Shown here: one piece after another, positions 1-57,083 of the stretch | How positions within the stretch are numbered: position 1 is the first letter of the stretch | Layout of the letters: every line of letters begins with the position of its first letter | Source: Escherichia coli | GTDB lineage: Bacteria > Pseudomonadota > Gammaproteobacteria > Enterobacterales > Enterobacteriaceae | DNA: 64,000 nt | NCBI RefSeq assembly: GCF_003334385.1 | Contig: NZ_QOWN01000016.1 | Strand: one strand, 5' to 3' | Made by a program: the position numbers and the translations under genes | Notes under the pieces: model-generated | What the model was told of the DNA's origin: nothing | Databases searched by the model: none | The model's input: only the letters and a program-made list of their open reading frames with translations

Positions 1-72
1 CAGAAGTGAAACGCCGTAGCGCCGATGGTAGTGTGGGGTCTCCCCATGCGAGAGTAGGGAACTGCCAGGCAT
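1..72 (+). rRNA. rrfD: 5S rRNA, 3' portion (gene starts upstream of window); first of two 5S copies at the distal end of an rrnD-type operon
   Basis: Window opens inside the canonical E. coli 5S sequence (...GAAGTGAAACGCCGTAGCGCCGATGGTAGTGTGGGGTCTCCCCATGCGAGAGTAGGGAACTGCCAGGCAT), identical to the complete copy at 198-317. Confidence 0.9.
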
Positions 73-84
73 CAAATTTAGCGT

Positions 85-160
85 GCTGATATGGCTCAGT
101 TGGTAGAGCGCACCCTTGGTAAGGGTGAGGTCCCCAGTTCGACTCTGGGTATCAGCACCA
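85..160 (+). tRNA. thrV: tRNA-Thr (anticodon GGU)
   Basis: 76-nt sequence GCTGATATGGCTCAGTTGGTAGAGCGCACCCTTGGTAAGGGTGAGGTCCCCAGTTCGACTCTGGGTATCAGCACCA with encoded CCA end; lies between two 5S genes as in rrnD. Confidence 0.92.
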
Positions 161-197
161 CTTTTTAGGTTAAAGTTCGGCAGATTAGAAAAGAATT

Positions 198-317
198 TGT
201 CTGGCGGCAGTAGCGCGGTGGTCCCACCTGACCCCATGCCGAACTCAGAAGTGAAACGCCGTAGCGCCGATGGTAGTGTGGGGTCTCCCCATGCGAGAGT
301 AGGGAACTGCCAGGCAT
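198..317 (+). rRNA. rrfF: 5S rRNA, complete 120-nt copy
   Basis: TGTCTGGCGGCAGTAGCGCGGTGGTCCCACCTGACCCCATGCC...GGGAACTGCCAGGCAT; second 5S gene after thrV. Confidence 0.92.
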
Positions 318-322
318 CAAAT

Positions 323-366
323 AAAACGAAAGGCTCAGTCGGAAGACTGGGCCTTTCGTTTTATCT
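323..366 (+). terminator. rrn operon terminator T1 (hairpin plus U-tract)
   Basis: AAACGAAAGGCTCAGTCGGAAGACTGGGCCTTTCGTTTTAT immediately after the 5S gene. Confidence 0.75.
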
Positions 367-496
367 GTTGTTTGTCGGTGAACGCTCTCCTGAGTAGGAC
401 AAATCCGCCGGGAGCGGATTTGAACGTTGCGAAGCAACGGCCCGGAGGGTGGCGGGCAGGACGCCCGCCATAAACTGCCAGACATCAAATCAAGCG

Positions 497-530
497 AAAG
501 GCCATCCGAAAGGATGGCCTTTTTGCTTTT
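497..530 (+). terminator. rrn operon terminator T2-like hairpin plus U-tract
   Basis: AAAGGCCATCC-GAAA-GGATGGCCTTTTTGCTTTT; the stretch between T1 and T2 contains a degenerate 5S 3'-end-like segment (AAACTGCCAGACATCAAAT). Confidence 0.6.
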
Positions 531-545
531 CGAACTAACATTCAA

Positions 546-1304
546 TTAATGGATTACCTGCGATAAAAATGCCCTCGTACGCTCTGATTTAGGATGCGCA
601 AAAAATTCATCAGGTGCAGCTTGCTCCACTATTTCCCCACGATCCATAAAAATTACCCGGTCAGCGACGGTTCGTGCAAACCCCATCTCATGTGTTACAC
701 ACAACATTGTCATACCCGACTGCGCCAGCCCAATCATCGTATCCAGCACCTCTTTCACCATCTCAGGATCGAGCGCCGACGTTGGCTCATCAAACAACAT
801 AATTTTCGGCTTCATACACAGCGAACGCGCAATGGCAACGCGTTGCTGCTGACCACCTGAAATCTGTCCGGGAAACTTATGCGCATGTTCGGCAATTCTC
901 ACCCGCTCTAGGTAATGCACCGCCAGATCTTCAGCCTCTTTCTTAGGCATCTTGCGTACCCAAATCGGTGCCAGGGTACAGTTCTGTAAAACGGTCAGAT
1001 GAGGGAAGAGATTGAAATGCTGAAAGACCATTCCCACTTCCTGCCTGACGCGCTCAATATTGCGGATATCTTCATTAAGTTCGATGCCATCTACCACGAT
1101 CCGTCCCTGTTGATGTTCTTCCAGATGATTAATACAACGAATGGTTGTCGATTTACCGGAACCTGAAGGGCCACACAGAACGATCCGTTCTCCCGGTTGC
1201 ACGGTTAAATTTATATTTTTCAAAACATGGAATTGTCCATACCATTTATTGACGTTTTCCAGCGTAATCATCGCGTTAGCAGGTTGCAGTAAAATTTGGC
1301 TCAT
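546..1304 (-). CDS. yhdZ: amino-acid ABC transporter ATP-binding protein
   Basis: 252 aa; Walker [13 protein letters not shown] signature ISGGQQQR; last gene of yhdWXYZ. Confidence 0.9.
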
Positions 1305-3673: not shown

Positions 3674-4699
3674 TTAACGCACGGGCGGTGCGTACTGAAT
3701 ACCGCCGTTATTCCAGAGATTATTTTGCCCACGTTTAATTTTCAGCGGGCTTTCTGAACCTACGTTACGCTCAAAAATTTCCGAGTAGTTACCCACCTGT
3801 TTGATGATGTTATAGGCCCATTTATTATCCAGCTTCAGATCCTTGCCGTAATCGCCTTCTTTACCCAGCAGATGTGCCATATCAGGCGTTGCTGGATTAG
3901 CCGCTTTTTCATCGACGTTCTGGGAATTGATGCCCATCTCTTCAGCATTCAGCATGGCGAAAAGCGTCCAGCGTACAATCGAGAACCATTCATCATCGCC
4001 ACGACGAACTACCGGACCAAGCGGTTCTTTTGAGATAACTTCCGGTAAGACAATCCATTCAGCTGGGTTGCTTAATTTGATGCGCAGGGCATACAGTTGT
4101 GATTGATCCGAGGCCAGCGTATCGCAGCGACCAGATTCCAGTGCCTTCGCTGATTCGTCAGAGCGATCGAAAGTCACCGGTGTGTACTTCATATTGTTTG
4201 CCTTGAAGTAGTCGGCGACGTTGAGTTCGGTATCAGTACCCGCCTGAATACAGACGGTAGCGCCATCCAGTTCTTTCGCGCTTTTTAGCCCCGCTTTATC
4301 GTGCGTCAGGAAGCCAATGCCGTCGTAATAAGTGACGCCGGTAAATGCCATTCCCATCCCGGCATCGCGAGATGAAGTCCAGGTCGTATTACGGGAGAGC
4401 AAATCCACCTCCCCTGACTGTAAAGCGGTGAAGCGTTCTTTTGCAGTGAGCGGGGTATATTTCACTTTCGTGTCGTCACCAAATACAGCAGCGGCAACAC
4501 CACGACAAATATCAACATCAATACCTGAAAACTTACCGTCAGCATCGGCATAAGAGAACCCAGGTAATCCATCACTGATCCCGCATTGCACAAAACCTTT
4601 TTTCTGAACGGCATCAAGCGTCGCGCCAGCATGCGCCTGATTTGCAACGGCAAGCAGCACGCTGGCGGCAGCCAGTGTGGCTATCATCATCTTTTTCAT
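3674..4699 (-). CDS. yhdW: periplasmic amino-acid-binding protein of the ABC system
   Basis: 341 aa, N-terminal signal peptide MKKMMIATLAAASVLLAVANQAHA, solute-binding protein family 3 features. Confidence 0.88.
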   Translation of the reverse strand: MKKMMIATLAAASVLLAVANQAHAGATLDAVQKKGFVQCGISDGLPGFSYADADGKFSGIDVDICRGVAAAVFGDDTKVKYTPLTAKERFTALQSGEVDLLSRNTTWTSSRDAGMGMAFTGVTYYDGIGFLTHDKAGLKSAKELDGATVCIQAGTDTELNVADYFKANNMKYTPVTFDRSDESAKALESGRCDTLASDQSQLYALRIKLSNPAEWIVLPEVISKEPLGPVVRRGDDEWFSIVRWTLFAMLNAEEMGINSQNVDEKAANPATPDMAHLLGKEGDYGKDLKLDNKWAYNIIKQVGNYSEIFERNVGSESPLKIKRGQNNLWNNGGIQYAPPVR

Positions 4700-31283: not shown

Positions 31284-31357
31284 TTTGACGAGGGCGCGTA
31301 ATTGCCCCAATCTCATAGGATAATCGTTGCCAAAGGCCAACGAGCCAGAACATAACC

Positions 31358-31391
31358 GTAGGTCGGATAGGGCGTTCACGCCGCATCCGGC
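31358..31391. repeat. REP (repetitive extragenic palindrome, PU type)
   Basis: GTAGGTCGGATAGGGCGTTCACGCCGCATCCGGC, reverse complement of the REP consensus GCCGGATGCGGCGTGAACGCC...; between yhdP and tldD. Confidence 0.8.
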
Positions 31392-31423
31392 AGCCGTAAA
31401 AAATCCTCTACTGCAGTAACTAA

Positions 31424-56541: not shown

Positions 56542-57083
56542 TTTGCCTCCACCAGGACCGTCAGATTGCCTGTAATATCTGTCATGTCGGTTAGTTCCCC
56601 TTCATCCTTAAAAGCTGGAGCCATTGTCAGTGTGAGGCTAACGCTTTTACCGCTATCAATTACCACTTCTTGACCATTTTGCATAAACACCAGCCAATTA
56701 TTGGGGGAAGTACTAATTGATGCTGTTCCTGTGCTGCCCGGATTGTCATTTTTGCCACTGGCTAACGCCAGGTCGAGATTGTTACTACCTGAAAATGCAT
56801 CGCTGGCGATCAGATTTAATGAACCATTCGGGCCAAATCCAAATCCGTTGTTGGAAATATTAGCGGTATTCAACTGAACACGAATATGAGCGTCCTGATC
56901 GCATTGCATTACCAGCGTGATTGTTCTGTCTGCTAATTGTGTTGTTTTACCCCGGTCAACTTGGCGCATGGCAGCACTTCGTTTGCCATAGTCGATATTT
57001 TGTATGCTACTGGAGATATTACACTCTGCCTGAGCGGCCATGGCGAAGTTCAGCAGCAGGCATCCTGTTATTATCCGTTTCAT
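56538..57083 (-). CDS. yhcE: fimbrial-like protein, intact
   Basis: about 181 aa from ATG at 57083 (MKRIITGCLLLNFAMAAQA signal peptide); ATGA overlaps with yhcD stop and yhcF start; uninterrupted here. Confidence 0.75.
   Translation of the reverse strand: MKRIITGCLLLNFAMAAQAECNISSSIQNIDYGKRSAAMRQVDRGKTTQLADRTITLVMQCDQDAHIRVQLNTANISNNGFGFGPNGSLNLIASDAFSGSNNLDLALASGKNDNPGSTGTASISTSPNNWLVFMQNGQEVVIDSGKSVSLTLTMAPAFKDEGELTDMTDITGNLTVLVEAK

Follow-up and report, generated by a model that had tools for sequence, protein, structure and literature searches.

The distal end of rrnD in an Escherichia coli genome carries the rrF small RNA cassette between two copies of the 5S rRNA 3´ end

The first 545 nt of the window (the whole stretch of Escherichia coli DNA that was analysed, 64 kb) contain the distal end of the rrnD operon. 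Positions 305–533 very probably represent a 168-bp cassette, which consists of terminator T1 and the small RNA gene rrF between two 18-mers and is followed by the definitive terminator T2; the 18-mer would be a retained functional boundary and not debris. The end of an rrn operon is a textbook locus, and its T1–T2 region is present in countless plasmids. By sequence comparison, the piece at 473–490 is the terminal repeat of rrF, which has already been described, and nothing at the locus is new. An earlier note on this DNA had expected largely known biology, which holds true for a locus already published as rrF. The features are summarized in Table 1.

Table 1. Features of the rrnD distal end in the window.
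Feature	Coordinates	Strand	Basis
rrfD 3´ part, first 5S gene	1–72	+	Rfam 5S match 1–70, 5´-truncated by the window start; MG1655 annotation
thrV, tRNA-Thr(GGU), anticodon GGT	85–160	+	ARAGORN; Rfam tRNA 70.7 bits; MG1655 annotation
rrfF, complete second 5S gene of rrnD	198–317	+	Rfam 5S 89.1 bits at 200–315; limits from MG1655 rrfF annotation
First copy of the 18-nt direct repeat (13 nt from the end of 5S, then CAAAT)	305–322	+	Sequence self-comparison
Terminator T1, 20-bp hairpin (321–364) and T-rich tail	321–374	+	Hairpin search, fold
RrF transcript, 173 nt, approximate span	321–493	+	Mapped RrB ends (PMC8144298), transferred
rrF 5´ arm, predicted to pair with 474–487 as a 5S-helix-I-like closing stem	366–379	+	MFE fold
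Hairpin A, loop CGGGA (GGA motif)	400–422	+	MFE fold; covariation
Conserved TLR core GAACGTTGCGAAGCAACGGCCCGGAGGGTG; hairpin B (425–439) and mini-hairpin B´ (440–450, loop GGA)	421–452	+	RtT alignment
Hairpin C, GGCGGGC-AGGAC-GCCCGCC, GGA in loop	451–469	+	MFE fold; covariation
Second copy of the 18-nt direct repeat (3´ side of the closing stem; putative second RNase E signal)	473–490	+	17/18 vs 305–322
Terminator T2, hairpin (496–523) and TTTTTGCTTTT	496–533	+	Hairpin search, fold
yhdZ, ABC transporter ATPase, convergent with rrnD	546–1304	−	ORF list, MG1655 annotation

The sequences between T1 and T2 of rrnA, rrnB and rrnD have been described as rrA, rrB and rrF, respectively (Stenum et al., 2021; PMC8144298). 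E. coli K-12 has 22 'tRNA-linked repeats' (TLRs), to which they belong; for these, that study cites Egan and Landy, 1978 and Rudd, 1999, and their hallmark is a final 18–19 bp identical to the 3´ end of the preceding tRNA or rRNA gene (PMC8144298). The RrA, RrB and RrF RNAs arise by read-through of T1 and occur as species of ~173 nt and ~115 nt, the half-life of which is about 2.5 min (PMC8144298). They bind CsrA and co-purify with Hfq; for RrB, the binding of Hfq and CsrA was detected by pull-down and in vitro (PMC8144298). The phenotypes of rrA/rrB/rrF deletion are modest, deletion and overexpression have similar effects, and a strain lacking all 22 TLRs is among those of the study (PMC8144298). 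Because the phenotypes are modest and deletion resembles overexpression, the role of RrA/B/F in CsrA titration is weakly established.

The element in the window belongs to the RrA/B/F group: 305–490 is identical to MG1655 rrnA at 185 of 186 positions and to rrnB at 184 of 186 (>98% identity to rrA and rrB), and T1 and T2 flank it. It also has the properties of a TLR. The element (321–490) lies directly after rrfF and before T2, its 3´ repeat matches at 17 of 18 positions (18 of 18 in MG1655), and its core (421–452) aligns with the RtT unit of tyrT(-tyrV) with 28 identities over 32 columns (z about 10). The Rfam RtT model (RF00391) matches the four units at the MG1655 tyrT locus with about 135 bits; in the window it reaches 17 bits at 404–447, at model positions 42–89 only, compared with a gathering threshold of 45, and rrF is a relative of RF00391 and not a member. 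The RNA of 321–493 would be transcribed by read-through, processed to ~173 nt and ~115 nt, and bound by Hfq and CsrA in the manner of K-12 RrB.

The locus is assigned to rrnD because yhdZ, as convergent neighbour, marks this operon. The order in the window is that annotated for MG1655 rrnD (rrfD-thrV-rrfF-yhdZ), and the 5S-tRNA-Thr-5S order is found at rrnD only among the seven MG1655 operons; the element order, yhdZ and the MG1655 annotation together confirm the proposal of the earlier note that the stretch is an rrnD operon end. As read from the sequence, mature rrfD ends at 72, and 1–77 is identical to 246–322. rrfF differs from its MG1655 counterpart at position 314 only, and 318–560 shares 100% identity with E. 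coli strains such as TOP10 and J53. Three open reading frames (116–397 (+), 165–545 (−) and 427–549 (+)) were dismissed as mechanical ORFs across RNA genes.

Between the terminators, a 5S-like string (ATAAACTGCCAGACATCAAAT) occupies 470–490, the 5S-derived part of which is AACTGCCAGACATCAAAT (473–490). This 18-mer is identical at 17 of 18 positions both to 305–322 and to 60–77. The copies at 60, 305 and 473 are the three in the 64 kb, compared with a chance expectation of 0.01 matches (≤2 mismatches), and three were reached in 0 of 100 shuffles; the observation of a 5S-end copy therefore stands. The copy between the terminators that had been proposed earlier is thus real, and its identity as a 5S 3´ end is supported by the 17/18 match and the shuffle test, although it spans 473–490 and not 455–490; positions 451–469 form a GC hairpin that is unrelated to 5S. 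Here, the two rrnD 18-mers differ at one base (G314 vs A482), whereas they are identical (18/18) in MG1655. The similarity runs on into the starts of the terminators (305–334 vs 473–502, 27 of 30 identical). An RNase E site is located just after mature 5S, where the 5´ end of RrB lies (3 nt past mature 5S), and the repeated 18-mer has been proposed by the authors as a second RNase E signal (PMC8144298).

T1 (321–364) contains 20 pairs with the tail CTGTTGTTTG and TTTTAT inside the stem end, and T2 (496–523) contains 12 pairs with the tail TGCTTTTCGA. Both are predicted intrinsic (rho-independent) terminators, each with a GC-rich hairpin and, on the transcribed strand, a U tract behind it, and the fold of 318–535 has a z of −9.75. 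The earlier calls of T1 at 323–366 and of a T2-like hairpin at 497–530 were correct as to the presence of both, while their limits are shifted. On the minus strand, too, T2 can form a hairpin, which faces yhdZ and lies 23 nt from the yhdZ stop. T1 and T2 can be aligned past the 18-mer (CGAAAGGC...GCCTTT; global score 8 vs −11.4 ± 4.1, 0 of 5000 shuffles); T2 is, on this alignment, paralogous to T1. For rrnB, T1 is leaky, with 87% termination measured compared with 100% at T2, and the authors describe the dual rrn terminators as long puzzling (PMC8144298). Rfam matches to Phe_leader, MicC, RNAI and miRNA families in 316–540 were rejected as terminator-hairpin look-alikes far below threshold. 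The T1 stem also resembles the D-arm of tRNA-Thr (332–359 vs 93–120, 20 of 28), which is treated as probable chance.

The 103 nt between T1 and the second 18-mer show no detectable similarity to the 5S body. An alignment of 367–472 (106 nt) to the 5S body (198–304) scored 14, which is below the shuffle mean of 15.3, and the 5S covariance model has no match in 318–540 at E ≤ 10, even when 225 nt were searched alone. The dissimilar body and the absent covariance-model match rule out a whole decayed 5S gene or 5S pseudogene. The 'decayed' footprint read into this region by the earlier note is therefore not borne out, as the body is unlike 5S, carries instead a core common to TLRs of other operons and genera, and is the published sRNA gene rrF. 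A past duplication is nevertheless plausible from the T1/T2 similarity and the helix-I-like 5´ strand, whereas a mere relic is not.

The MFE fold of 366–490 (−56.1 kcal/mol, z = −4.3) places GGA in three loops; the GGA loops are common to the rrF of the window and rrA/rrB. Its closing stem (366–379/474–487) keeps nine of the ten helix-I pairs in 5S numbering, and among the kept pairs U371-A482 replaces C3-G117 of 5S. The rrF 5´ arm and the 5S 5´ end are identical at 8 of 12 positions, a similarity that has no significance by itself; from the 5´ arm to the 18-mer there are 117 nt (120 nt in 5S), and GAGTAGG is common to rrF and 5S positions 100–106. The closing-stem complementarity was also compared across hosts with duplexfold. 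The tRNA-Arg closing stem reached −17.0 kcal/mol with its own host compared with −10 to −15 with other hosts, and the value for tRNA-Tyr was −16.3; the own-host preference is weak for Lys, and none is separable for 5S and Pro. Since duplexfold does not discriminate for 5S, the 5S case is based on the explicit helix-I register and the MFE fold. rrF may be viewed as a 5S 'shell' (helix I, the 3´ processing context and a terminator copy) around a different conserved module, and a duplication of 5S with its terminator would be a reasonable origin of this shell.

In the proposed mechanism, most rrnD transcripts would end at T1 and a minority would read through, as has been seen for rrnB in the literature. 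The read-through RNA is predicted to fold into a compact multi-hairpin domain, the closing stem of which imitates 5S helix I and takes the copied 5S end as its 3´ strand. Since the processing signal of the true 5S 3´ end is also present in the 18-mer, RNase E would cut after both copies to release the ~173-nt RNA, which would later be trimmed to ~115 nt; the ends were mapped for RrB, and the RNase E role was inferred by the authors (PMC8144298). The GGA loops of hairpins A, B´ and C may bind CsrA, and the RNA may also bind Hfq, as reported for RrB, such that the level of a short-lived RNA would report rRNA transcription. Selection and concerted evolution (gene conversion and unequal exchange) would keep the 18-mer identical to the 5S end, and the 18-bp repeats would permit clean loss of the cassette. 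The widely used rrnB T1–T2 cassette of expression vectors is the same DNA as rrA/rrB/rrF, in the order T1, structured RNA, 18-bp 5S-end repeat and T2. This standard terminator cassette is accordingly not inert, as it encodes a structured RNA that binds CsrA and Hfq, and its discoverers already warn of this (PMC8144298).

A comparison with all seven rrn ends, which the earlier note had suggested, was carried out on the operons of MG1655. rrnA, rrnB and rrnD share a 168-bp period (18-mer, T1, about 103 nt, 18-mer, T2), and the other ends differ. In rrnG, 5S is joined directly to a T2-type terminator, and the sequence past that terminator is shared with rrnA. rrnC and rrnH have TTAAGCAG after 5S, which is equal to the octamer behind the second 18-mer in rrnA and rrnB, and rrnE has a terminator of its own. 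From this comparison, the second 18-mer with its following sequence resembles a genuine 5S-to-downstream junction, and the 168 bp that precede it look like a unit that was added here or lost elsewhere. The full arrangement is found at rrnD in 3241 of 5426 complete E. coli genomes; the cassette is missing at rrnD in about 40% and is therefore dispensable there. In strains such as F11 and D10, precisely the 168 bp are gone, and rrfF, which ends in CCAGACAT, runs directly into T2. In Citrobacter youngae, the cassette of one locus follows the second 5S at a 5S-tRNA-Thr-5S operon end that shows this CCAGACAT variant too, so the empty E. coli alleles are more simply explained as deletions. It is simpler to assume that an exchange between the two 18-bp repeats removed the cassette, although the direction of this change is inferred. 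A Yersinia MLVA marker is a tRNA-Arg TLR array, in which repeats drive copy-number change in the same way.

To survey the wider family, species-representative genomes were scanned with the pattern GTTGC-N3-7-GCAACGNCCCGNAGGG (matched in the window at 426–449), which yielded at least 171 matches at at least 120 loci. The sample is thus pattern-selected, and the figures given here hold among the matches listed. At least 115 matches, in other Gammaproteobacteria, lie 40–260 nt past a 5S gene or a gene for tRNA-Arg, Lys, Pro, Tyr or Ser, and in most of these host-linked cases the last 17–19 nt of the host gene recur exactly about 20 nt further on. The copies of tRNA hosts usually begin at position 58 or 59 in the T-loop, whereas 5S copies consist of the last 13 nt and CAAAT. 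As read from the sequence, the leader of the tRNA-Arg unit (GCACCAGGGAGGAT) reproduces the acceptor and T-stem 5´ strands, which gives a minihelix-like shell.

Two types of 5S-linked units can be distinguished. Type I units, as in E. coli, contain T1 and GGA loops with a period of 167–170 and occur, among the matches listed, at 5S ends of Citrobacter, Enterobacter, Pectobacterium, Pseudescherichia and an Escherichia sp. Type II units have a period of 136–139, contain neither T1 nor GGA loops, and are placed between 5S and tRNA-Thr or tRNA-Asp or ahead of a terminator. Since the type II units have no GGA loops, CsrA binding cannot be the function of the whole family. Free-standing matches, defined by no nearby stable-RNA gene according to ARAGORN, nhmmer and Rfam, are listed from Pectobacterium, Brenneria, Pseudomonas, Marinobacter, Alcanivorax/Alloalcanivorax and Stenotrophomonas. 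They are intergenic, sometimes form tandem 74-nt arrays, and consist of hairpin A (loop CCGGGAGC), AAC, hairpin B, GGCCCGNAGGG, hairpin C (loop CA[GTA]GGAUG) and an A-run, with GGA motifs in loops; rrF has the same A-B-C layout at 400–472. The free-standing units match no Rfam family at threshold (best RtT 21 bits and RsmY 14 bits), and none of three of their sequence strings turned up in open-access full text. Six loci of the family scan are on viral contigs. At five, there are TLR units matching tRNA 3´ ends (one of these loci has an annotated tRNA-Tyr), the sixth looks like a chance match in a coding-like stretch, and these six loci gave no sign of phage carriage.

Covariation was evaluated by an explicit structure count over 27 homologous units (pattern-selected, among the matches listed). 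Compensatory changes are present at eight of nine pairs of hairpin A and six of seven of hairpin C (together 14 of 16), and the covariation score of A and C is 0.267; shuffles gave 0.128 (0 of 500), and slid partners did not exceed 0.118. Hairpins B and B´ carry no covariation evidence because the search pattern fixed their sequence. RNAalifold on a MAFFT alignment missed hairpin C because of register shifts; in an ungapped-stem strand comparison, many tRNA-linked C hairpins have tandem G-A mismatches, which a simple scorer treats as broken. G-U pairs (e.g. 48-58, GU in 19 of 27) favour the transcribed strand. The TLR family extends further and is more modular than would be expected from the literature, which centres on E. 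coli. We tentatively propose, at somewhat less than even confidence, that the core (hairpin B, CCCGNAGGG and hairpin C, usually preceded by hairpin A) is an old modular gammaproteobacterial RNA element, which is either free-standing or grafted into a partial copy of a tRNA (T-loop, minihelix-like shell) or 5S (helix-I shell), ~18 nt before the 3´ end of that copy. If true, the processing enzymes of the host would excise the grafted unit, and TLRs would be 'processing-signal mimics' with a shared cargo.

Like the tRNA-linked TLR/RtT units, rrF lies directly downstream of a stable-RNA gene and ends with the 3´-terminal 18–19 nt of that gene, and the core (AACGTTGC..GCAACGGCCCGNAGGG) and a closing stem between the leader and the copied 3´ end are common to both. 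In contrast, the host of rrF is 5S and not a tRNA, the T1 terminator lies within its leader, and its hairpins A and C are unlike the tRNA-linked versions and resemble those of free-standing units. Like 3´ETS-leuZ and other sRNAs that are excised from stable-RNA precursors, the rrF RNA is a by-product of rRNA/tRNA operon transcription, which the processing RNases would free and which would serve as a binder or sponge. The two are unrelated in sequence, however, and 3´ETS-leuZ captures sRNAs through base pairing, while the proposed partner of RrA/B/F is the protein CsrA. CsrB/CsrC and RsmY/RsmZ present GGA in hairpin loops as rrF does, and CsrA binding is reported for RrB, but rrF differs from these sponges in having just three GGA loops. 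No Csr/Rsm family of Rfam was matched at threshold, the best being RsmY with 14 bits on a free-standing relative.

Three other explanations of the cassette were weighed. The 18-mer could be the last piece of a third 5S gene, which decayed without a role after a tandem duplication of 5S and terminator. The match to the 5S end, the paralogy of T1 and T2, the 5S-like span with its helix-I-like stem and the shared GAGTAGG agree with such a relic, and yet the body falls below the shuffle mean and has no 5S covariance-model match, and the interior is a conserved module that also occurs beside tRNA genes and free-standing. Near identity in three operons and maintenance across genera with compensatory changes are also unlike a neutral relic, and a processed RNA has been detected (PMC8144298). 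Decay is thus improbable and, as a complete explanation, already largely refuted. It is very improbable that the region is a mere spacer of a fail-safe double terminator, the T1–T2 geometry of which stops antiterminated polymerases and insulates yhdZ without any RNA function. Two strong terminator hairpins, the minus-strand competence of T2 so close to the yhdZ stop and the authors' long puzzlement over dual terminators (PMC8144298) would accord with a spacer, but one terminator suffices in four of the seven operons (rrnG has the T2 type only), the covariation falls in hairpins unrelated to termination, and homologous elements are found outside terminator pairs, e.g. between 5S and tRNA-Thr or tRNA-Asp.

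We give as little credence to the idea that the cassette represents, or is derived from, a small mobile element inserting ~18 nt from the 3´ ends of stable-RNA genes, with the 18-bp repeats as a target-site or att duplication. Such an insertion could account for the exact 168-bp presence/absence polymorphism with flanking 18-bp repeats, for the position of the core ~20 nt upstream of an exact 17–19-nt 3´-end copy in six host gene types (from 58/59 in the T-loop for tRNAs), and for dispersed free-standing copies in Alcanivorax, Pseudomonas, Pectobacterium and others. However, the host-linked copies lie downstream of the cognate gene, often in VNTR-like tandem arrays, a pattern that unequal exchange explains; parts of the host (5´ strands of helix I or the T-arm) are copied in the leader too, and a simple insertion would not produce this; T1/T2 is duplicated as well; the analyses run identified no recombinase; and the Citrobacter youngae cassette makes the empty E. 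coli alleles more simply deletions. A retained cassette with the 18-mer as its functional boundary is the reading that we prefer.

The rrF allele in the window also bears on exchange among the operon ends. Over 63 kb, the window is 99.95% identical to MG1655 with 23 scattered substitutions, and five further differences are clustered in 314–391 (78 bp); at each of them, the window has the base of MG1655 rrnA in place of that of MG1655 rrnD. Four are located in rrF (328, 357, 384 and 391) and one in rrfF (314); 328 and 357 form a compensatory pair in the T1 stem. Against an expectation of about 0.03 substitutions per 78 bp, these five mark a conversion tract in either of the two lineages, and the gene conversion among rrn ends suspected in the earlier note is supported by this cluster. 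Because the allele is identical to rrA at the differing sites, RrF-short would here equal RrA/RrB-short. The haplotype of MG1655 and that of the window are both in circulation. The ends of rrn operons thus vary within E. coli through cassette loss and conversion-shuffled alleles, which is relevant to their use as markers or integration sites. Among the haplotype records, the MG1655 type is ≥99% identical in 1868 and the window type in 460.

The minus strand of the T2 hairpin (window 496-546) also scores as a terminator-like hairpin. The convergent gene yhdZ has its stop codon at 546, and the hairpin lies 23 nt past that stop. This position, together with the minus-strand score, indicates that T2 may be a bidirectional terminator, serving both rrnD and the yhdWXYZ operon.

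Upstream of T2, the two 18-mers that flank the cassette correspond to the 5S end. In the rrfF of the window strain, the 5S helix-I pair 3-117 is U-G (window 314); MG1655 rrfF has U-A instead, as does the closing stem of the TLR (window 482). CCAGACAT is also the end of the cassette-less rrnD alleles in strains F11 and D10. Sequence evidently passes between the two 18-mers. Within the cassette, the T1 stem (332-359, GGCTCAGTCGGAAGAC...) is identical to the thrV D-arm region (93-120, GGCTCAGTTGGTAGAGC...) at 20 of 28 positions, a likeness that is probably due to chance.

Most tRNA-linked TLRs at loci in other genomes (L016, L025, L064 and others) carry a conserved CGAG...GAGU that frames hairpin C and would give tandem G-A mismatches at the base of its stem. 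This frame is missing in rrF and in the free-standing units. The contig with the label E. coli SCPM-O-B-8794 (L109) carries at one end a type-II 5S-linked TLR, which lacks the GGA loops. A T2-type terminator follows the 5S-end copy of this TLR, an arrangement absent from all seven operon ends of MG1655. One tyrT-type TLR unit, located where a predicted provirus contig ends (L132; IMGVR_UViG_2660238126_000002, ~4573-4598), is truncated at the 5´ end and abuts unrelated sequence, a junction that may represent an element integrated within or beside a TLR.

The A-B-C unit also forms intergenic tandem 74-nt arrays (L066, 3277-3448; L082; L121, 6388-6489), as exemplified by Pectobacterium betavasculorum, in which an array lies between a TerC-family gene and sstT. 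The hairpin-C loops of these arrays have the sequence ACAAGGAUGU, which resembles the CsrA binding consensus. A search of these three loci against Rfam returned no family at threshold.

Beyond rrnD, the differences between the window and MG1655 include the following. yhdW is annotated as a pseudogene in MG1655, and a 1-bp indel at window 4632 separates that sequence from the ORF of the window. yhcE is split by IS5R in MG1655; the window has no IS5R insertion at ~56713-56716, where the alignment of the two sequences jumps by ~1.2 kb. The tldD-yhdP intergenic region (window ~31334-31400) is longer by ~270 bp in MG1655, which suggests repeat copy-number variation, because the BLAST pieces overlap in this region with six clustered mismatches.

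Position and state of yhdW in the window
Feature	Coordinates	Strand	Description
yhdW	3674-4699	minus	intact ORF, 341 aa
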